A DNA stretch of 8,748 nucleotides from a virus (lineage: Duplodnaviria > Heunggongvirae > Uroviricota > Caudoviricetes): IMG/VR virus record IMGVR_UViG_2541047780_000006; one strand, 5' to 3'. The position numbers were made by a program, and so were the translations under genes. Under the pieces are notes generated by a model that saw only the letters and a program-made list of their open reading frames with translations, made no database searches and was not told where the DNA came from. Positions 1 through 8,748 of this stretch are shown piece by piece; the first letter of the stretch is position 1; each line of letters opens with the position of its first letter.

Positions 1-249
1 ATGCGTATTGAAATCTGCATAGCCAAAGAAAAAATGACTAAAATGCCAACCGGTGCTGTGGATGCGTTAAAGGAAGAATTAACCCGACGCATCAGTAAAC
101 GTTATGACGATGTAGAGGTGATCGTAAAAGCCACCAGCAACGATGGCCTTTCTGTTACGCGCACCGCCGATAAAGATTCAGCTAAAACTTTTGTTCAGGA
201 AACTCTGAAAGATACCTGGGAGTCTGCTGACGAGTGGTTTGTTCACTAA
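1..249 (+). CDS. DinI-family protein (DinI-like RecA/SOS modulator), 82 aa
   Basis: The 82-aa ORF aligns over its full length with E. coli DinI (81 aa) as recalled from memory: MRIE..IAK N-terminus and the conserved acidic C-terminal tail [10 protein letters not shown]. It diverges from chromosomal DinI, so it is a DinI-like paralog rather than dinI itself. The ATG is at window position 1, so the promoter and any LexA box are not visible. Confidence 0.8.
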
Positions 250-316
250 TTAGCACGTAAAATCAGTAACAGCTGGAAATCATTCAATACTCGCACTATC
301 GAAAGTTAACCAGCCA

Positions 317-362
317 GCCGCAGTATCCTGTCATGACAAGTTACTGCGGCTTTTTACTTTTT
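317..362 (+). terminator. Rho-independent terminator downstream of the dinI-like gene
   Basis: Inverted repeat GCCGCAGTA (317-325) / TACTGCGGC (342-350) with a short inner palindrome in the loop, followed directly by TTTTTACTTTTT (351-362) on the plus strand. It lies about 65 bp after the stop at 247-249. Confidence 0.6.
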
Positions 363-366
363 ATAT

Positions 367-609
367 TTAACGGATCAACATCCAGATCAGCAGACACGCC
401 ACCACCGGCACAGCAAAATCCATCAGGCTTGCCACATCCCATGCACGTGGATCAAAACCGCCCCACCACGGCATGTTAATCCGCTTGCCATGCCCGAACA
501 TTTCAATCCAGCGATATTCTGCCTGGGTGTGTTCACGCGCAATGAAGAACGTACAACCGGCTATCGCCCCGTAAGCCCAGTTTCCGGTAAAAAGACCAGC
601 CAGTAGGTT
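367..609 (-). pseudogene. Orphan 3-prime gene fragment (C-terminal piece of a hydrophobic, Trp-rich protein); possible displaced host gene end at the prophage boundary
   Basis: Minus-strand frame open for 80 codons between an in-frame TGA (rc of 610-612) and a TAA (rc of 367-369). It has no start codon until a Met 44 codons from the end and no RBS. Hand translation: NLLAGLFTGNWAYGAIAGCTFFIAREHTQAEYRWIEMFGHGKRINMPWWGGFDPRAWDVASLMDFAVPVVACLLIWMLIR. Absent from the ORF track, presumably because the Met-initiated part is short. I could not identify the parent gene. Confidence 0.3.
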
Positions 610-644
610 TCAAAAAACACAATAACCAATTGTATTTGAAGCAA

Positions 645-775
645 AAGACAAGACTTTGAGATGTTTTTTTGTACCTTTTTTTTATGTTTTTAACTGTCTG
701 ATTTTATTGAAATCTTTTTTAGTTTTGCAGAAGGAATTTTTTACTTGATTGTAACTTTTTCGTTTTTTTGGGGCT
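645..775. other. Very AT-rich spacer with a dense series of T-tracts (A-tracts on the minus strand); candidate curved DNA, att arm or H-NS/IHF-binding region
   Basis: Nine runs of 4-8 T within about 105 bp (664-670, 676-683, 687-691, 702-705, 715-720, 723-726, 737-742, 756-760, 763-769). No ORF on either strand. Spacing is irregular (7-18 bp), so strict helical phasing is not demonstrated. Confidence 0.3.
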
Positions 776-912
776 AATTGACGCGCAATGCTGGGCGGGG
801 AGCGCACAGCCAAAAAAACCGAAATTGACCGCTAATTACTGCCAATCATCATCGCTCTGATTGAGCGTAAATCATTCAGGTTATTCAGTTCTTCCTTCTG
901 CTCTCGCTGACG

Positions 913-1083
913 TCAATAAATCCCATCATTGCGATCAACCTCATCCTTAACCATTGATGCGAGCAGTTCTTCCAGTTTCTGCGCTGACAGCTTTACCTGG
1001 TGATCTTCAGCATCTTCCCGGGCTATTGTGGTTCGCGCAGTGGCTGATTTTGCTGACATCACCACAGGGGGCAGACGGACCAT
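913..1083 (-). CDS. Hypothetical small acidic protein, 56 aa (MVRLPPVVMSAKSATARTTIAREDAEDHQVKLSAQKLEELLASMVKDEVDRNDGIY)
   Basis: ATG at rc 1081-1083 is preceded by GGAGG about 10 nt upstream (rc of 1091-1099); stop is rc of 913-915. The ORF track shows a 93-aa version starting at 1194, but that N-terminal extension runs through the degenerate hairpin of repeat copy A and has no RBS, so the shorter form is preferred. No recognisable family. Confidence 0.35.
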   Translation of the reverse strand: MVRLPPVVMSAKSATARTTIAREDAEDHQVKLSAQKLEELLASMVKDEVDRNDGIY

Positions 1084-1147
1084 TGAACCATGGCCTCCGG
1101 AACAAATAAGGGCAAAAATAACAACCACTATCGAAAGCTCACAAACT

Positions 1148-1363
1148 AACCGCAGCACGTTCCTGCATACGACGTATCTGCGGCATAATCCCAATGATTA
1201 CTCCCTGACAGGATTTGCAGGCCACTCAATATCAGGTGCAGTTGATGTATCAACACGATTCAACAATACCCGATATTTATTCCATGCCTCCAGCAACGAT
1301 CTTTCTTCCTCCGTTGCGATTTCCAGATCTACAGCATCCTGCAGTGGCGCAATATACTCACTG
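1148..1363. repeat. Direct repeat copy A (~216 bp): tfa 3-prime end plus a degenerate downstream hairpin
   Basis: Manual alignment of 1148-1363 with 2198-2412 gives about 87% identity, with one indel inside the hairpin. Flanking sequence is unrelated on both sides. The hairpin CCGCAGCACGT...ACGTATCTGCGG (1150-1183) is an imperfect version of the perfect palindrome in copy B. Confidence 0.85.
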
Positions 1364-1467
1364 AATTCCTGGATGTAGAACTGTGTGGTGACGGTCTTCC
1401 AGCCATTCGGCTCCTGCTGTATCGAAGCATACCAGGCTATTTCAATATCGCTATGCTGCGGCAGCAT
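1198..1467 (-). CDS. Short tail fibre assembly protein paralog, 89 aa (unique 36-aa N-terminus fused to the conserved Tfa C-terminal ~53 aa; tfaX-like)
   Basis: The C-terminal 53 aa ([53 protein letters not shown]) are near-identical to the C-terminus of the full Tfa at 2247-2831. The N-terminal 36 aa ([36 protein letters not shown]) are unrelated to Tfa. A good RBS, AAGGGG, sits 4 nt before the ATG (rc of 1472-1477). It could be a functional short chaperone or a recombination remnant. Confidence 0.6.
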
Positions 1468-1523
1468 TTAACCCCTTGTAATTCATCGCCATAATTGATT
1501 TAATTCACAAATAAAACTATAAC

Positions 1524-2192
1524 ATGGTGAAATCAATGAAAAAAAACACAGATGATGGGGCTAAAATTTACACACCACTTACCCTAAAGCTTTATGACTG
1601 GTGGGTTTTGGGAGTATCAAATCGGCTTGCATGGGGATGTCCTACAAAGGAACACCTTCTTCCACACTTTCTGGAACATGTAGGTAACAACCATCTGGAT
1701 ATTGGTGTTGGAACTGGGTTTTACCTTACTCACGTACCTGAGAGTAGTCTGATATCTTTAATGGATTTGAACGAAGCTAGCCTGAACGCGGCATCTACAA
1801 GGGCTGGGGAATCAAAAATTAAACATAAAATTAGCCATGATGTTTTTGAACCTTATCCCGCGGCGTTACATGGTCAATTTGATTCCATTTCCATGTTTTA
1901 CCTTCTTCACTGCCTGCCTGGAAATATATCTACAAAAAGCTGTGTAATACGCAATGCGGCGCAGGCCTTAACTGACGATGGAACTCTATACGGAGCCACA
2001 ATTCTTGGCGATGGAGTTGTGCACAATAGCTTCGGTCAAAAACTGATGCGCATTTACAATCAGAAAGGCATCTTTTCAAACACAAAAGATTCCGAAGAAG
2101 GCTTAACACATATACTCTCAGAGCATTTCGAGAATGTTAAAACCAAGGTTCAAGGTACTGTAGTAATGTTTTCCGCTTCAGGGAAAAAATAG
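1524..2192 (+). CDS. ybcY: Class I (Rossmann-fold) SAM-dependent methyltransferase, 222 aa; prophage cargo gene, YbcY-like
   Basis: Motif I HLDIGVGTGFY, an acidic residue at the end of beta-2 (LMDLNE), motif II FDSISMFYLLHCLP and motif III LTDDGTLYGATIL. No DPPY/NPPY or PCQ motif, so it is not a DNA methyltransferase. Visibly more AT-rich than the flanking phage genes and on the opposite strand. The symbol is assigned from my recollection that DLP12 of E. coli K-12 has the order tfaD-ybcY-tfaX, with ybcY a putative SAM methyltransferase; this was not verified by alignment. An alternative start at ATG 1536 (MKKNTDD...) has a GGTGA Shine-Dalgarno 5 nt upstream and may be the true start. Confidence 0.75.
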   Translation: MVKSMKKNTDDGAKIYTPLTLKLYDWWVLGVSNRLAWGCPTKEHLLPHFLEHVGNNHLDIGVGTGFYLTHVPESSLISLMDLNEASLNAASTRAGESKIKHKISHDVFEPYPAALHGQFDSISMFYLLHCLPGNISTKSCVIRNAAQALTDDGTLYGATILGDGVVHNSFGQKLMRIYNQKGIFSNTKDSEEGLTHILSEHFENVKTKVQGTVVMFSASGKK

Positions 2193-2197
2193 CATCC

Positions 2198-2412
2198 AAC
2201 CGCAGCACGTTCTTGCTTAAGACGTGCTGCGGCATAATCCCAATGATTACTCCCTGACAGGGTTCGTAGGCCACTCAATATCAGGTGCAGTTGATGTATC
2301 AACACGGTTCAGCAACACCCGATACTTTTTCCAGGCTTCCAGCAATGAGGTTTCTTCCTCCGTTGCAATTTCCAGATCTGCAGCATCCTGAAGCGGCGCA
2401 ATATGCTCACTG
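2198..2412. repeat. Direct repeat copy B (~215 bp): authentic tfa 3-prime end plus downstream hairpin
   Basis: Partner of 1148-1363 at about 87% identity. Covers the last ~55 codons of tfa and about 50 bp of 3-prime flank, including the perfect palindrome at 2200-2232. Confidence 0.85.
2200..2232 (-). terminator. Perfect 11-bp-stem palindromic hairpin between the convergent tfa and methyltransferase genes; probable terminator
   Basis: CCGCAGCACGT (2200-2210), loop TCTTGCTTAAG, ACGTGCTGCGG (2222-2232). On the minus strand it lies 15 nt after the tfa stop, with a T-run (rc of 2184-2189) about 10 nt after the stem. On the plus strand it lies 8 nt after the methyltransferase stop but has no T-run. 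Confidence 0.45.
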
Positions 2413-2831
2413 GCTACCTGCATCAGGTTGTTTTTTGTTTCTTCCGCCTCCCGGATCCGGAACAGTTTTTCTGCTTCCGTATCCTTCACCCAGGCTGTGC
2501 CGTTCCACTTCTGAAACTCCCCTTCCGGCGATAACCAGGTAACATTTTCCGGTAACGGACCGAGTTCAGAAATAAATAACTCGTCCCCTGACGCTACGTC
2601 ATAAACCGTTTTCCCCCGATGGTCTTCAACGAGATGCCACGATGCCTCATCACTGTTGAAAACAGCCACAAAGCCAGCAGGAATATCTGGTGGTGCAATA
2701 TCGGTACTGTTTGCTGGCAGACCTGTATGAGGCGGAATATATGCGTCACCTTCACCAATAAATTCATTAGTTCCGGCCAGCAGATTATAAATTTTTATGG
2801 TCCGTGCTTGTTCACTCATTCTGAATGCCAT
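2247..2831 (-). CDS. tfa: Tail fibre assembly protein Tfa, 194 aa
   Basis: Same length and near-identical sequence to phage lambda Tfa as I recall it ([53 protein letters not shown]...). The start ATG overlaps the stf stop in TAATG. GAGG Shine-Dalgarno lies 8 nt upstream. Confidence 0.95.
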
Positions 2832-5800
2832 TATGCAAGCCTCACAATATAGTTAAATGCGATGTTTTTGACGGTGTTTTCCGCGTTACCCGCAGCGTTA
2901 ACGGTGATGGTGTGTCCATGTGAACCAATCGCAACGGAGTGCGTATGCGCACCAATACCTACAGTATGTGCATGTGCGCCAGAACTTGCTGCAGTACCAG
3001 ACAGCGAGTGGGTATGAGCACCTGCTGACTGTGTCTGAATACGTTGATAATACGATCTATAGGAAGAAGTCTCCGGGCTTACTTGATACTGTGAATTCTG
3101 GACATAAGTGAACCCACCGCCATCATAAAATGCTAACGCAGAACCGCCGCCTCCTGGCCAACGAATACCATTACCATGAGTATGAACACCGGCAGACCCC
3201 GTAGAGCCACTCAGACTGTGCGTATGCGCCCCAGTGTTATTCGTGGATTTAGTGCCGTAATCAAACGACGATGTGGTTTTCGTCCCCAAATCCGTACTGG
3301 ATGCGCTGGCGCTGTGGGTGTGCGATTTTATGCCGTCCTGTTCCTGAGACAATACGGCCCGGCCACTGGCGGGTTTGCCCTTGATTGTCCAGCCGCGCAT
3401 ATCTGGAATAACACCTGAAGGATAGGCAATAGCCAGTTTCGGATATGCTGCCTTATCAAACGTCTGCCCCTGCATGATTGCATAACCTGCAGGTGGTGTA
3501 TCTGATGGCCACGGCAGCGGAACACCTGGCGGAAACGCTTCAATATTTGCCGAGCCGTCAAATTTTACGCCGTTAATTGTCCTTGCAGTTTGCAATTTGG
3601 TTGCTGTGCTTGCATTACCCGATAAAGATCCAGTGATACCACCACTCGCGTTTAATTTAGTTGCAATTGTAACATTGCCAGTATGGTTACTAATTATAAA
3701 CGGCCTTAAGCTATTGTGCGTACCAAGACTGTTACCCGAATCTGTCAACATAAAATATGTGTTTGATCCATCATTTCGGATAAAGAATCCATAGTTGCCA
3801 TAGGCAATACGCAGACCATTTGCTGACCTTGAAATAACCTCACCAGCAGCAGTTAAACCACCTGAAAGAGTCCCTCCAGTTAATGCCAATGCCCCAATAT
3901 TTGAAGGGGTCAATGTGATATTTGCACTACCATCAAATGACACACCGTTAATCGTTCTGGCTGCCTGAAGTTTCGTGGCGGTCGCAGCATTACCTGTAGT
4001 GTTTTGATTACCGGTAGCGTTGACTCCAGGCAAGTTGATATCTGCCGATCCATCAAATGCCACGCCCCCAATCTTACGTGCTGTCTTGATCTTGGTCGCA
4101 GTATCTGCGTTTCCGGTCAAATTACCAGTAACACTACCACCAACTTTTAGTCCATTACCGATGGACACCAACCCTGATCTTAAGTTTATAGAGAATGGTC
4201 TTAATGAACCGATGTCTCCATTTTCCCCCTCCCCTTCATTAGTCGGAATAAGATGAAGATGATCTTCGGAACGCCTAAAAATAAGGCCAAAGGCTTGGTT
4301 GAATATTCGAAGAGCATTTATCGTGCTGATTTTTAACTGCCCTCCCATTGTGTCGCCAGTTTTTTGAACTGAACTATCTTTAACAGTTTTAACTGCCTTT
4401 GGCGTTGCCGCCAGCTTTTCACTGGTGCTGTTTGTTGCACTGCTGAGCTGTACTATCCCCTTTTTCGTCGTGCTCGCATCCTCCAGCGCCACGGCGGATG
4501 CAATATCCTCTGCCCGTTTTGCTGCTGTCTCGGCGCGCGTTGCCGCGGATTCAGCAGCAACTTTGCTCTGAGATGCAGCCGTCGCACTGCCTGCCGCCTC
4601 TGATGCTTTCGTTGTTGCTGTCGTGGCACTACCTTTCGCTGCTGACGCTTGTCTGGTCGCCTCATCTTTTGAAGCAGACGCAGATGATGCCGATGACGCC
4701 GCTGAACTGGCTGACGATGCGGCTGCCGCCTTAGAGGAAGCAGCATTGTCTGCTGAAGTCTTTGCATTTGTTTCAGAGGTTTTTGCTGCAGAAGCAGACC
4801 TCGCTGCTGCAGTGGCTTGCTCAGTGGCTTTGCCAGCCTTCGTTGTGGCTGTTGAAGCGGATGATGCGGCGCTTTCTGCCGATTTTCCGGCGGCGGTGGC
4901 ACTGGCTGAGGCCTGCCCGGCACTTGTTGACGCGGCACTGGCAGATAATGCAGCCGCTGTTTTTGAACCTGCCGCAGCTGAGGCGCTCTGTCCCGCTGCT
5001 GTTTCAGAAGACTTAGCGTTCGTCTCGGACGTTTTTGCCGCCTTCGCGGAATTTCCTGCCGCCGTTGCCGAGGAAGCTGCACTACTGGCACTTGATGATG
5101 CATTCGTTTCTGAAGATTTCGCTGCCTCTTTTGAGGCCGCCGCACCCCGTGCCGAGGTGGCAGCTTCTGACGCCTTCGTGGTCGCTGTGGATGCAGAAGT
5201 GGCTGCCGATTTTTGTGATGCTGCGGCATTCGTTTCTGACGTTTTCGCGGCACTGGCGCTGGTAGCTGCCGCGCTTTTTGATGACTCTGCAGCAGCAGCA
5301 CTTTTTGCTGCTTCACGGGCCTTTGTCGATGCCGTTCCTGCGCTGGAAGACGCTGACTGAGCCGACGACGCGGCCTGTCCGGCTGACGTGCTGGCGGCAC
5401 GTGCTGAGGCTGCAGCATCGGTTGCATGAGTTGCCGCCTCGCTGGCTGATGCACTGGCATCGCTGGCTGATTTTTTCGCGGCTGCCGTATTCTGTGCAAC
5501 CGCGGAGGCGTTACGTGACACCTCTTCCACCATCTGCTCAAAGCGGCGCAGTGCCTCCGGTCGGACATCATCCTCCGTCATGGCACCGAGAAAATCATTC
5601 AGCGTACCTGGTCTGGAACCTTCATAGACGGTAATGGTCCCGGCATGTGAAGGCGGAAAATCTTCAACCAGCAGGGTGACGCTGTACTGGCCATACTCAA
5701 CATCCATGCTGTAACGCCCGGCTTCATCCGGATTTTCAGAGGCCACCGTGTTCACCACCACCGTGCTGCTGGTCCGTCTGGCCTTCAGCACAATGGTGCA

Positions 5801-5857
5801 GTTCTGTACTGGTTTTCCTGTGCCATCTTTAAGCACGCCAGAAATTTTTACTGTCAT
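2831..5857 (-). CDS. stf: Side tail fibre protein Stf, 1008 aa, mosaic
   Basis: The N-terminal ~115 aa ([22 protein letters not shown]...) and the C-terminal ~250 aa (PWPSD...[32 protein letters not shown]...GAHTHSLSG...[29 protein letters not shown]) match lambda Stf as recalled. In between are a long Ala/Ser/Thr-rich repeat region and three copies of the phage tail-fibre repeat (G-N-A-x-T-A-T-K-[IL]-x-x-A-R-x-I-x-G-V-x-F-D-G-S-A-[DN]-I). Confidence 0.93.
4420..5515. repeat. Intragenic degenerate tandem repeats (Ala/Ser/Thr-rich shaft of Stf; about 42-bp, 14-residue periodicity)
   Basis: The protein motif K(T/S)SETNA recurs at spacings of 42, 28 and 7 residues. The corresponding DNA motif GC(A)TTYGTTTCWGANGNTTTYGC recurs near 4764, 5016, 5101 and 5227. 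The region is nearly stop-free in several frames, which generates long shadow ORFs on both strands. Confidence 0.6.
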
Positions 5858-5870
5858 ACTTTTCCACCAA

Positions 5871-5905
5871 TAAAAAAAGCCCGCAGCAGTGACGCCACGG
5901 GCTTC
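5871..5905 (-). terminator. Candidate rho-independent terminator between lom and stf
   Basis: Minus-strand RNA would read AAGCCCG, a 14-nt loop, CGGGCUU, then a U-tract (rc of the A-run 5872-5878). It ends about 14 nt before the stf ATG, with a GGTGGA Shine-Dalgarno between. The loop is long, so strength is uncertain. Confidence 0.45.
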
Positions 5906-6008
5906 AGGACAGTGTAACTTTACGTTTCCTCAAACGCAGTTCACCCCATAAGGCGGATGAACCTGCGTATCATAACAATATTTACAGAAGATAAATCGGC
6001 GTCTGTTG

Positions 6009-6608
6009 TCAGAAACGGTATCCGATACCAACAATAAATGCATCCGTTCGCCAGTCGCCACTGCCGGAGCCTTCATAAGCAATATCAATGGCCACGGATT
6101 CGGTCGGGTTAAACTGCACGCCAGCCCCCCACGCCAGAGACGTGTTGCTGTGGCGACCGTCATCACTTCCGGTCAGCACATCGTGCGTTTTCCCCTTGTT
6201 GTCAGTTACGCGGAGATAATCCCCGGAGAAAGTCGACACACGGCTGTAAGCCACACCCACCATCGCATACGCGCTGAACCATTCATTCACGCGTACAGAC
6301 GGCCCCGCCATCACGCTGAACCAGCGGTTACGCACGGAATCTTCATGCCAGCGGGTATCGCTGTAATGCGTTTTTTGCTCATCTTTGGCATTGGCATAAC
6401 TGAATGACGTCACCAGCCCCAGCGTGTCCGTAAACTCATAACGGTATTTCACGTTAATCCCGTTCAGATCATCGCTGCCAGGCATATCAGTATGGGTCTG
6501 AAGATACCCGGCGCTTAGTGTGGACTGATGCTCTGCTGCGCTCGCTGGCGTACCAGCGGCAACCAGCCAGACTACTGCGGACAGAATAACAGCACATAAT
6601 TTACGCAT
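6009..6608 (-). CDS. lom: Outer membrane protein Lom (Ail/Lom/OmpX/PagC family 8-strand beta-barrel), 199 aa
   Basis: Signal peptide MRKLCAVILSAVVWLVAAGTPASA. The C-terminus IAYEGSGSGDWRTDAFIVGIGYRF matches lambda Lom. GAGAGG Shine-Dalgarno lies 6 nt upstream. Position between J and stf is as in lambda. Confidence 0.95.
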   Translation of the reverse strand: MRKLCAVILSAVVWLVAAGTPASAAEHQSTLSAGYLQTHTDMPGSDDLNGINVKYRYEFTDTLGLVTSFSYANAKDEQKTHYSDTRWHEDSVRNRWFSVMAGPSVRVNEWFSAYAMVGVAYSRVSTFSGDYLRVTDNKGKTHDVLTGSDDGRHSNTSLAWGAGVQFNPTESVAIDIAYEGSGSGDWRTDAFIVGIGYRF

Positions 6609-6632
6609 AATTACCTCTCGCTTTTCTGCAAT

Positions 6633-6656
6633 AAAAAAGGCGCCATTTCTGGCGCC
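6633..6656 (-). terminator. Rho-independent terminator between J and lom
   Basis: Minus-strand RNA reads GGCGCCA, loop GAAA, UGGCGCC, followed immediately by UUUUUU (rc of 6633-6638). It lies about 20 nt after the J stop and about 25 nt before the lom start. Confidence 0.6.
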
Positions 6657-6675
6657 CGTATTGGGGTTATAAAAT

Positions 6676-8748
6676 TCAGCTAATCGTGATGCCTGCAGTG
6701 GCTTTCTTCATCACAACAACCAGCAAATCGCTGATACTTGCTGTGGGATACCAGCCATTTACCCACCATGCTGATACAGAAAACTCCAGCGTCATGTGAC
6801 CGCGACCAGCAGGCATATCAATAACACCACTGTAAACCAGCGTATTATCCAGCGCGGTACGGTTATAAATTTCAGCACCGTTTTTCTTCACTATCAGGCG
6901 GCATGACGAATAAGTATCGCTGTTCTCCCGCTCATGTCTGGCACCGCTGAAAGCCACCGCCGGAATAACAATCTGCCGGTTAAACGGCTGATCGTCATAA
7001 ACCCTGACGGTAATGGTTCCTGATGGCCAACGCTTCGGTGCACGGGAGTCACGAGGGAAAGCCTTACCCACTGTTTTAACGAGATCGCCTTCAATCTGGT
7101 TTGCAGACAGTTTCCCTCTGATGACACAGTTCTCGTTAATGGTGACATTATTGAGCGTGCCGGTATTCGCCGTGATGGCTCCACTGATATCCGCATTGCG
7201 GGCTGTCAGCCTGCCATCCGGCGTCAGGGAAAACGTCGGAGGATTGCCGGATGACGTGATGCTCACCGCAAACAGTCGCTTCAGGAACACGTCGTTCATG
7301 AACAGCTGATTCCCCTGCGCCACAAACAGCGGCGTGGTGTTGCCGTTCTCCGGGGTAATCATCGCAATGCGATCGGCCTGCAGCAGAATGTTACTCAGGG
7401 TCTGACCATCAACATCCTCAATCCCCGCGCCAATCCCGGCCACATAGGGAATACCGTTTTTTGTTTTCTGCACCTTCAGCATATACATGGCATTCAGCTC
7501 ATTGCGCGTGTCTGACTGAACCCGCTGGATTTGCTGTATGGTCACGGCCTGGTCACCCAGCTTTTTATCCGTGGTCGAGGTAATTTCACTCCCTTTTTTA
7601 TCCACGTACTGGCGGACCTGTGCTATCTGCCGGGCGTTTTCTGACTGCCCCTGGCTGACAGTCTGTGAGATTTCACTGCTCACCCGGTCCACTTTCTGGC
7701 TCATCTGCGCGATGGCCAGTGTCTGGTCCTCATTCTTTTTCGCAACCAGCTGCGTGAGGCTGTTTTCCGCCTCCCCGATTTTCCGGGTCACTTCTGCGAT
7801 ATCCGTGTCCATCCGCTGACGGATGTCTTCTTCCAGTTGCGTGACCTCCGTACGCAGCGCTGAAGCATCAATGCGCTCTTTCAGTGCCTGACCCAGAAGC
7901 GTCTCATCTATCAGCCCCCGGAAAATTTCCAGATACCCTTCACCATCATTGCTGGGCTGCCCGCTGGCTTCCACAAAAGCAGATTTTCCCACCAGGTTGA
8001 CGCTTCGCACGTAAAACCAGAAATCCGTCCCCGGCTTAATCCGGCTCCCCTGGACAGTCCACTGACTGCCGGACCCCAGATAACGGGCAGATTTTTCCAC
8101 CTGTGCCGTGTTCGTGATGCGTTTTTCTGAGAACCAGAATTCAAACTGTATCGTCGGATCATACACCGCAAGACGCGGGACCGCCGTTATCTGAAAATAC
8201 CCCGGCGTCAGCTCAATGGTGGCGGGTTTTGCAGGTGCGTTAATCCGGAAGGTGGTGGTGGCAGGTTCACCCTGCTGGCCATAACTGTTTATCGCCCGCA
8301 CCGTCAGGGTGTATTCCCCCAGTGGCAGGCCACTGAAACGGTGCTCCGTGTCTGCGGTGATGGCGGTGGTCACCAGTCTGGCATCCGTTCCCTTACCACT
8401 GGTCAGGCGCAGACTGAAGCGCACGCCCTTCACCACCCGCGGCGTGTCCCATTTAGCCTGCGCCAGATACTGGCCGTCAGCTGCGCTCACCTCCACCGTC
8501 AGGTGCTGTACTGCCGGTGGGATGACGCTGTTCAGGGAGCCTGACTGCGGCTCAAAGCGGGCACCGTTATCCACGATGGCTTCTTTTTCCGGTACGTGCT
8601 GCACCGCCGTGATGGCAAAGGTGCCGTCCGTGTTTTCCCGGACGGAGACACAGCGGAACAGGCGACGGCGCAGTGACGGCAGGGAGAGTCCCCACACCCC
8701 GTATGTCTCCACACCATCCGGCAGGGTGCTGACCTGTATCCGGTCCGG
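6676..8748 (-). CDS. J: Tail tip host-specificity protein J (central tail fibre), C-terminal ~690 codons; 5-prime end lies beyond the window
   Basis: The reading frame stays open from the window edge at 8748 (in frame, no stop) down to the TGA at 6676-6678. The GTG start at 8710-8712 reported by the ORF finder is therefore internal. Large protein directly upstream of lom, as in lambda. The C-terminal region is the receptor-binding part in lambda J. Confidence 0.9.

Follow-up and report, generated by a model that had tools for sequence, protein, structure and literature searches.

A lambda-like side tail fiber gene of an Escherichia coli prophage joins a long, predicted coiled-coil heptad shaft to a mosaic distal arm

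The window, as we call the whole stretch of DNA analyzed, is 8,748 nucleotides long and carries the gene order J, lom, stf, tfa of the lambdoid phages, with all four genes on the minus strand; the layout of the stf region is the same in lambda and Rac. The stf gene (2831–5857) is a complete ORF of 1008 codons, with the boundaries and length that the original prediction had given it. Profile searches match it to the Pfam families phage_tail_N, Gp34_trimer, Collar, and Phage_fiber, PHROG searches to tail-fiber families, and RefSeq genomes label its product "prophage tail fiber N-terminal domain-containing protein." Directly upstream lies lom (6009–6608), which encodes an Ail/Lom outer-membrane protein (PF06316, E 1.8e-128), and next to it are the C-terminal 690 codons of the central tail fiber gene J (6676–8748; Pfam Ig_J, Phage_Tail_Tip, and Ig_GpJ_C), the frame of which stays open to the window edge, where scaffold KE700202.1 ends and J is cut. 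On the other side, the start of tfa (2247–2831), the gene for the tail fiber assembly chaperone (PF02413, E 1.9e-44; PHROG 105), overlaps the stf stop in the sequence TAATG, and a second, partial tfa copy follows downstream at 1198–1467 in direct orientation. A non-coding RNA explanation for stf was dropped: the only Rfam match in the window, IS009, falls within tfa and outside stf, and no tRNAs were found in the window. The 2831–5857 ORF is an intact, ordinary stf of a lambda-like E. coli prophage, and there is little doubt that it encodes the side tail fiber (Stf) of a lambda-like siphovirus.

The protein begins with a tail-docking, or collar, domain (aa 1–94; 5576–5857). PF08400 matches at full length over aa 1–134 (E 1.8e-69), as expected of the docking domain of a lambdoid Stf, and phmmer aligns the domain with residues 1–94 of lambda Stf in PDB 9e7m/9mgh (E 6.8e-47). 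In Ur-lambda, 12 copies of the Stf N-terminal domain make up a collar where gpV meets gpM (PMC12617516). The lambda-like character of this end, which had been predicted, extends well beyond the docking domain: by BLASTP, aa 1–352 are 77% identical to lambda Stf without a gap.

Between aa ~107 and ~456 (4490–5539) lies a proximal shaft of about 50 uninterrupted heptads. The segment is rich in Ala, Ser, and Thr, as had been noted from the sequence, with an A+S+T fraction of 0.68–0.78 per 50-aa block over aa ~107–460, but the 14-residue period ascribed to it proved to be a harmonic. Formal autocorrelation of residue identity does find periodicity, with z = 9.8 at lag 7 and 7.4–9.6 at lags 14 to 56 and no peaks between; the multiples of 7 behave alike, lag 7 is at least as strong as lag 14, and the fundamental is 7 residues. 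A single register runs through the ~50 heptads, in which three fixed positions are occupied by Ala (96%), Ser (76%), and Ala (71%), the 96% Ala being at one core position. Structure prediction agrees: an AF2 model gives one continuous helix over aa 98–479 (mean pLDDT 73.5), and this model, a single-sequence monomer with pTM 0.27, informs on helicity and not on trimerization or trimer geometry. The extreme composition of the segment, its small core residues (Ala/Ser in place of the usual Leu/Ile), and the lack of any Pfam match to it could be taken to indicate a disordered low-complexity linker or a non-helical fiber. We regard this as highly improbable, given a strict 7-residue register held for 350 residues with zero shifts, the continuous predicted helix, and a dN/dS of 0.13 relative to Rac, which indicates that the sequence itself is conserved, beyond its composition. 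Moreover, the homologous segment of Ur-lambda was modeled as a proximal coiled coil that fits the cryo-ET density (PMC12617516). The shaft periodicity is that of a coiled-coil heptad.

The shaft had also been described as expanded. This holds relative to lambda, in which a block of 105 aa, or 15 heptads, is missing (aa ~312–416; 4610–4924): aa 404–499 align with lambda Stf 299–394, an offset of 105, and the best single-gap placement puts the block after residue 303–314, with an ambiguity of about ±8 aa. It does not hold relative to Rac StfR, which aligns with aa 1–499 at 90% identity with zero gaps, nor relative to the 49 IMG/VR relatives, in 33 of which the anchor-to-anchor shaft is 356 aa, the commonest class. 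In these alignments lambda is the short-shaft variant, and a long shaft is not peculiar to the 2831–5857 stf. Shaft length does differ in frame among natural alleles, as had been anticipated. Near-identical alleles carry deletions of 7, 28, 42, 49, 105, and 28+84 aa, and whole heptads account for about half of shaft indel events; out-of-register deletions of 22, 23, 34, and 1 aa also occur.

The cause proposed for this variation was replication slippage or unequal crossing-over on tandem repeats in the DNA. In addition to the whole-heptad differences themselves, a 21-nt periodicity of the shaft DNA (0.449 against a baseline of ~0.36) is in keeping with this idea, and two of the deletion junctions, those of the 42-aa and 7-aa deletions, fall on exact repeats of 14 and 12 nt, the longest in the shaft. 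However, no DNA-level repeats above codon-shuffled expectation were found. TRF detects only two arrays, of 26–29 nt, and none longer in the shaft; self-blastn returns a single 26-nt match; find_repeats likewise shows no repetition in excess of composition; among exact direct repeats, the longest in the shaft DNA measures 14 nt, compared with 12.3 ± 1.3 (maximum 17) in the codon-shuffled controls; and there are 4 repeats of at least 11 nt, against 3.4 ± 2.0. Deletion junctions share 0–14 nt of identity in the window DNA, and apart from the two just mentioned only 0–8 nt. Because the shaft DNA is no more repetitive than codon-shuffled expectation, slippage is not borne out as the cause and appears unlikely; microhomology-mediated or homeologous recombination with subsequent selection for register would fit the data at least equally well. 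A further idea is that in-register gain and loss of heptads, from 1 to 32 among the relatives, results from tuning and not from drift: fiber reach would be fitted to the thickness of the O-antigen or capsule layer of the host, and the excess of heptad multiples would reflect a molecular-ruler selection acting on frequent microhomology-mediated indels. We consider this quite unlikely. A full-text literature search returned nothing relevant on heptad-quantized Stf length variation, which is weak evidence of absence.

Beyond the shaft, the end of the helix is followed by a conserved 26-residue motif (together aa 457–499; 4361–4489), a candidate hinge consisting of one alpha/beta fibrous unit, which aligns with lambda 352–394, Rac 457–499, and Mu S 83–150 (PDB 5yvq). 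Judged by the description in PMC5537660, the motif probably belongs to the gp34/gp12 repeat type. The middle module then comprises three parts. Unit A (aa 500–612; 4022–4360) contains a GDTMGG motif, a knob, and the first TATK repeat; it aligns with unit B at 42% identity across 114 aa (E 7.5e-23), and nothing in lambda Stf matches it as protein, nor anything in lambda or Rac as DNA. An extra TATK..FDGS repeat separates the two units (aa 613–666; 3860–4021), within which aa 621–654 are 71% identical to aa 746–779 (E 6e-14). Unit B (aa 667–775; 3533–3859) has a GGTLSGG motif, a knob like those of gp34 P4 and Mu S, and the third TATK repeat. PF21446 (Gp34_trimer) matches aa 620–722 with 94.2 bits (cut-off 27; E 1e-26) and, on the isolated middle module, two stretches with 97.2 bits; in addition, unit B matches Mu S (5yvq) residues 268–350 (domain E 2e-24) and T4 gp34 997–1121. 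The motif TATK[IL]..AR.I.GV.FDGSA.I has exactly three matches in the protein, at aa 586–607 (4037–4102), 626–647 (3917–3982), and 751–772 (3542–3607), all within the interval 3520–4120 to which these repeats had been assigned. We describe them by this motif, having dropped their assignment to PF03406 (Phage_fiber_2, "phage tail fibre repeat"): with the threshold relaxed to E ≤ 10, hmmscan of the middle module still returns no match to that family, and a few relatives have a precomputed match to it.

The borders of the middle module also show at the DNA level. Window positions 4388–5884 and 2198–3538 are homologous to lambda and Rac, and this homology is absent from 3539–4387. The first mosaic joint lies after the hinge motif, where this homology ends at ~4388, and the second after unit B, where it returns at 3538 for lambda and 3514 for Rac. 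The GC content of the middle is 42–46% against 57–60% in the shaft, and the best phage matches of the module are fibers of the P1/P7 S type, at 65–71%. Pfam and PHROG profiles, BLASTP, matches to solved structures, and the DNA homology breakpoints all support the original view of a mosaic fiber with lambda-like ends, a longer shaft, and three repeats in its middle, and alignment to lambda and Rac confirms that, relative to lambda stf, an extra module of 264 aa has no lambda counterpart. The two joints correspond to lambda R393 and S528, which have served as fusion points for functional chimeric fibers (PMC11338833).

The kinship of the middle module with the S fibers of Mu and P1/P7, which are under invertase control, raises the question of whether an invertible segment of the Cin/Gin/Pin type swaps the C terminus of this fiber and thereby switches host range, as in Mu, P1, and e14. 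In Rac, pinR adjoins tfaR, and the partial second tfa would also be in keeping with such an arrangement. However, the window contains no recombinase ORF, the tfa fragment is a direct and not an inverted repeat, and no inverted repeats reach 20 nt in window 1–3300, which makes an invertible segment extremely improbable here.

The receptor-binding tip (aa 776–1008; 2831–3532) consists of a collar domain and an HxH needle. It is of the T4 gp37 type, with a match to the gp37 tip structure (PDB 2xgf) over aa 743–1008 (E 1.2e-79), PF07484 Collar (E 5.8e-11), PF03335 in five stretches, and seven HxH motifs. In the T4 gp37 needle, metal ions are coordinated by the histidines of these motifs. The lambda-like nature of this end was also correctly anticipated, aa 764–1008 being 64% identical to lambda Stf 519–774. 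The exception is a variable segment at aa ~886–943 (3029–3202): its alignment with lambda, Rac, and T4 gp37 is gapped and weakly conserved, and window 3029 to ~3181–3200 has no DNA match in lambda or Rac. This segment is probably the receptor-contacting apex, placed there by analogy with the structure of T4 gp37. The last 45–65 codons of stf and tfa form one DNA block, 92.6% identical to lambda and 94.9% identical to Rac.

A gene at least 99% identical is present in 378 complete E. coli records. The 2831–5857 stf is already known, being in RefSeq and in hundreds of E. coli genomes almost unchanged. Among 50,697 phage records, by contrast, none matches the protein at 80% coverage or more; because the architecture is not found at this coverage in any deposited phage genome, it is known only from prophages. 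This distribution suggests another reading, in which a cryptic prophage retains stf as a relic without function, intact because there has been too little time for decay. Some carriers are damaged nearby: in ML35 an IS200 separates lom from J, and strain SW070919 carries an inserted IS3. The relatives include truncated or frameshifted genes, such as L040 with 258 aa, and the closest named relative, Rac StfR, resides in a cryptic prophage. Against this, neither the 1008-codon frame nor the overlapping tfa is disrupted, and over anchor and shaft dN/dS is 0.12–0.13 relative to Rac and 0.13–0.28 relative to lambda, values that place these regions under purifying selection at the level of sequence comparison. 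Among close alleles, the pooled pN/pS includes five loci fetched by exact protein identity, which have zero nonsynonymous differences by construction; in the unbiased set of L001 and five IMG/VR alleles, synonymous differences are relatively commoner than nonsynonymous ones, with small counts. Moreover, prophages that carry the stf cassette occupy three different chromosomal sites, implying that it has moved recently. We consider a relic rather unlikely and favor a functional fiber gene in a prophage that may still be active.

Exchange of the cassette is seen directly in one pair. The SCU-387 prophage, at the same yecD site, shares window 1–605 and 5507–8748 and carries an Stf of 687 aa. Recombination between lambda and Rac inside stf/tfa, at 88% identity, has been measured experimentally at ~2e-6 (PMC3945230), and the 5′ 1.5 kb and the 3′ end with tfa are 84–95% identical in nucleotide sequence among lambdoid phages. 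These conserved flanks may be substrates for relaxed homologous recombination that swaps the intervening sequence; here, the swapped-in piece would be the lower-GC middle module, the nearest phage relatives of which are the P1/P7 and Mu fibers.

Taken together, the data suggest the following model. By analogy with Ur-lambda, one fiber would consist of three chains, the aa 1–94 domains of which would dock at the junction of tail tube and tip. The segment at aa ~107–456 would form a rigid trimeric coiled coil of ~50 Ala/Ser-cored heptads, ~52 nm long at ~0.15 nm per residue, compared with ~36 nm for the 35 heptads of lambda. The conserved alpha/beta motif would act as a hinge, and the distal arm beyond it would be a beta-structured rod bearing two knobs of the gp34/Mu S type along with the three TATK..FDGS repeats, ending in a gp37-type HxH needle whose variable apex may bind a receptor on the host surface. 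The folding chaperone would come from tfa, the neighboring gene, which overlaps stf translationally. The fiber may speed reversible adsorption, ahead of J engaging its own receptor; assembly of the trimer on the virion and receptor-speeded adsorption are Stf features established only for lambda (PMC12617516).

The discovery value of the locus is small, the protein being already deposited and its mosaicism familiar. Nevertheless, its natural joints, after the hinge motif and before the tip collar, coincide with the fusion points of engineered lambda-based delivery particles, and the in-register deletion series shows how much coiled coil natural alleles can spare. Mosaic tail fibers have been described since the early 1990s and are now textbook material.

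Comparison with named systems places each part of the protein. P7/RCS47-type S fibers are 65–71% identical to the whole middle module; in Mu S (5yvq), residues 268–350 align with the unit B knob (aa 670–751), most residues being identical, and the same knob aligns with residues 997–1121 of T4 gp34, in the P4 region (PDB 4uxe, 5nxh, and 9x3r; PF21446). The T4 gp37 tip (2xgf) shares with our protein the collar domain and HxH repeats, as well as 11 near-identical residues at the C terminus, but its segment at ~148–178 differs and is longer in our protein, and the rest of gp37 is unrelated. The Mu, P1/P7, and T4 fibers belong to contractile-tailed phages and have other N-terminal attachment regions, and in P1 and Mu an invertase, absent here, switches the fiber C terminus. 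Ur-lambda Stf, which is organized as an N domain, a linker, a coiled coil (102–393), a hinge, a distal domain, and an OmpC-binding receptor-binding domain (PMC12617516), is 774 aa long, as the original prediction had stated. It has the same gene position, with the tfa start likewise overlapping the stf stop, and shares the N domain and shaft (77% identity), the hinge motif, and the tip (64%). However, it is 15 heptads shorter in the shaft; its residues 395–518 give way in the present protein to 264 residues that carry two knobs and three copies of the TATK repeat, which lambda lacks; and because its variable tip segment is a different one, binding to OmpC should not be assumed here. Rac StfR (E. 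coli K-12 b1372, 1120 aa) contains a single TATK repeat and a single knob of this type, against three and two here, in a middle that is longer and of other content than the 316 residues in our protein, with no DNA homology across 3515–4387, and its tip apex differs. Yet it has the same anchor and 50-heptad shaft (aa 1–499, 90% identical), the same HxH tip scaffold, and a tfa block that is 94.9% identical.

The open reading frame of 1008 codons at 2831–5857 (−) occupies the stf position of a lambdoid prophage. Upstream lie lom (6009–6608, −) and the C-terminal 690 codons of J (6676–8748, −; frame open to the window edge), and downstream lies tfa (2247–2831, −), whose ATG overlaps the stf stop codon (TAATG); this J–lom–stf–tfa layout is that of lambda and of Rac. 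In Pfam searches, Stf matched PF08400 (prophage tail fibre N-terminal; aa 1–134, E 1.8e-69), PF21446 (Gp34_trimer; aa 620–722), PF07484 (Collar; aa 778–825), and the PF03335 HxH repeats, and PHROGs tail-fibre families matched along the whole protein. Rfam IS009 (RF02111) matched full length at 2290–2488 (−; 225 bits, gathering score 117), a match that lies wholly within tfa and has the same orientation, and this family may simply be a model of conserved tfa coding sequence. Two ORFs overlapping the shaft in other frames (372 codons, 4453–5571, −; 245 codons, 4623–5360, +) encode low-complexity Arg/Gln/Pro or Ala/Asp/Phe runs and look like by-products of a GCN-rich periodic coding sequence, not genes.

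The original prediction was mostly right in what it observed, and comparison with the lambda and Rac fibres supports its main interpretation, a side tail fibre of modular, mosaic build. Ur-lambda Stf has 774 aa, the length given in the prediction. Residues 1–352 are 77% identical to it without gaps, residues 404–499 correspond to lambda 299–394 at an offset of exactly 105 residues, residues 500–763 have no lambda counterpart, and residues 764–1008 align with lambda 519–774 at 64% identity. Rac StfR (1120 aa) is 90% identical over aa 1–499 with zero gaps and nearly identical at its extreme C-terminus, but differs in the middle. At the DNA level, homology to both extends over 4388–5884 (84–88%) and returns in a block comprising the last 45–65 stf codons and tfa (92.6% to lambda, 94.9% to Rac); none was found in 3539–4387 or, within the tip, in ~3029–3200. 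GC content is 57–60% in the shaft versus 42–46% in the middle module.

The shaft had been described as having a 14-residue periodicity, which formal analysis corrects to seven. Identity autocorrelation of aa 120–460 (500 shuffles) gave z = 9.8 at lag 7 and z = 7.4–9.6 at lags 14, 21, 28, 35, 42, 49, and 56, with in-between lags at or below zero; since peaks fall only at 7 and its multiples, the peak at 14 is a harmonic of a 7-residue period. Arranged seven to a line, residues ~107 to 456 form ~50 heptads in a single register without a stutter, and three set positions of the heptad carry Ala, Ser, and Ala in 96%, 76%, and 71% of cases. In the trimeric fibre of Ur-lambda, the homologous segment forms the proximal coiled coil (PMC12617516). 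An AF2 single-sequence model of aa 95–500 is one unbroken helix over residues 98–479 (mean pLDDT 73.5). Coiled coils rise ~0.15 nm per residue, so that the 350 residues here would span about 52 nm versus about 36 nm for lambda's 245. Because shaft dN/dS is 0.13 versus Rac and 0.28 versus lambda, the shaft is under constraint in its sequence, and not just in its composition.

The suggestion that this gene varies in length in frame was borne out by near-identical alleles that carry shaft deletions. Between the conserved anchors VEEV.RNA and KGIVQL, the shaft measures 356 aa in this protein, the same as in Rac, versus 251 aa in lambda; the proposed expansion thus holds only relative to lambda and is no peculiarity, because 33 of the 49 IMG/VR relatives with both anchors also have 356 aa (the others have 132, 136, 244, 348, 349, or 400). 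Among the 120 closest 90%-identity clusters, in-register deletions remove 7, 28, 42 (three clusters), 49, 105, and 28+84 residues, and out-of-register deletions remove 22, 23, and 34 residues, plus one residue at A187. The latter, loss of one alanine in KSAAAAES, occurs in five clusters (P0029, P0044, P0046, P0061, and P0084) and puts an otherwise continuous coiled coil out of register by one. With the lambda and IMG/VR classes counted, about half of ~16 distinct events are multiples of seven versus 1/7 expected (8/16, binomial P ~8e-4, the event count being approximate and made without a tree). DNA-level repeats had been offered as the cause of this variation, which our analyses do not support. 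TRF found two arrays of 26–29 nt and nothing more; exact direct repeats in shaft DNA reach at most 14 nt (longest repeat in codon-shuffled controls 12.3 ± 1.3, maximum 17), and there are four repeats of at least 11 nt (controls 3.4 ± 2.0), so neither length nor number is in excess. Deletion junctions, mapped on window DNA, share 0–14 nt, the 42-aa deletion sitting on a 14-nt repeat and the 7-aa deletion on a 12-nt repeat. Microhomology-mediated or homeologous recombination may alter shaft length, with register-preserving products favoured.

The mosaic has two joints, one just after the hinge motif (~4388, aa ~490–499) and one just before the tip collar (~3538, aa ~764–774). These correspond to lambda R393 and S528, the fusion positions of functional chimeric lambda fibres (PMC11338833). 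De Paepe et al. reported lambda × Rac recombination within stf/tfa, at 88% identity, at ~2e-6 and largely dependent on Red-beta (PMC3945230). Cassette exchange is directly visible in the SCU-387 prophage at the same yecD–aspS site, which encodes a 687-aa Stf and has 1–605 (100%) and 5507–8748 (95.4%) in common with the window; the 4.9 kb that was exchanged therefore extends from the stf anchor/coiled-coil boundary (aa ~117) as far as the DinI-proximal ORF. Prophages adjoining ompW/yciE (ML35) and potB–pepT–phoQ (L005, L006) carry the same cassette as well.

The left 605 bp of the window carry a DinI-like gene and a truncated small ORF and match the end of a different prophage, that of SCU-387 at yecD–aspS, at 100% identity, while the ompW-type cassette matches from position 603 on. 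No complete E. coli genome joins these 605 bp to the rest of the window, and the junction at 603–605 reflects either true recombination or the joining of scaffolds in the draft assembly. The source genome, GCA_000458095.1, holds two J–lom–stf–tfa–methyltransferase blocks, both at scaffold ends (L007, KE700202.1; L008, KE700196.1), which are 99.8% identical over 1755–8748 with identical stf genes, suggesting that the resident prophages have recently exchanged sequence. The 3′ end of tfa recurs as a 227-bp direct repeat (1148–1374 and 2198–2423, 88% identity), which brackets a gene for a class I SAM-dependent methyltransferase encoded on the opposite strand (1524–2192, PHROG 2132) and leaves a truncated tfa copy at 1198–1467. 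A metagenome contig (L009) lacks exactly 1375–2197, the segment that recombination between these repeats would remove.

This is an ordinary stf gene of a well-described family, and its sequence is already in public databases. The window equals the end of scaffold KE700202.1 (GCA_000458095.1) read on the complementary strand, and the exact protein is recorded in NCBI and ENA assemblies. Among 5,426 complete E. coli genomes, megablast gave 378 records whose best match to stf has at least 99% identity and 423 genomes with a single match over at least 80% of the gene, annotated as "prophage tail fiber N-terminal domain-containing protein" (e.g., WP_000216487.1 in ML35). Since no deposited phage genome, of 50,697 searched, matches 80% or more of the protein, the architecture is known from prophages only. 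At 1008 aa the protein is of unremarkable length, complete Stf proteins with this N-terminus spanning 258 to 1680 aa. The tail module of some carriers contains insertion sequences: ML35 has IS200C between lom and J (L001, 11909–12367), and SW070919 (H23) has an IS3-family element within its stf match; at least some copies therefore lie in decaying prophages. As a by-product, only the naturally occurring series of heptad deletions that keep the register is of mild interest.

Residues 743–1008 match the solved receptor-binding tip of T4 gp37 (2xgf, E 1.2e-79), including the collar, seven HxH motifs, and an 11-residue C-terminal sequence. A tip segment, aa ~886–943, is unlike lambda, Rac, and T4; by analogy with the gp37 structure, this segment would lie at the distal apex contacting the receptor, and because it differs, lambda's OmpC specificity is not transferable to this allele. 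The middle module (aa 500–775) consists of two units (aa 501–612 and 667–779; 42% identical, E 7.5e-23), each with a GGT..G.L-type motif first, then a knob, and TATK[IL]..AR.I.GV.FDGSA.I last, with an extra repeat between them (aa 621–654, 71% identical to aa 746–779). Motif matching located all three predicted TATK..FDGS repeats, at 4037–4102, 3917–3982, and 3542–3607 (−); PF03406 did not match them even at E ≤ 10, and they are therefore left out of that family. Proteins with the same N-terminus carry none (lambda), one (Rac), three (this allele), or up to four. The knob of the second unit matches Mu fibre protein S (5yvq residues 268–350, domain E 2e-24) and T4 gp34 residues 997–1121, a region comprising a triple beta-helix and the P4 triangular domain (PMC5537660), and the best whole-module matches among deposited phages are S fibres of the P1/P7 type (65–71%).
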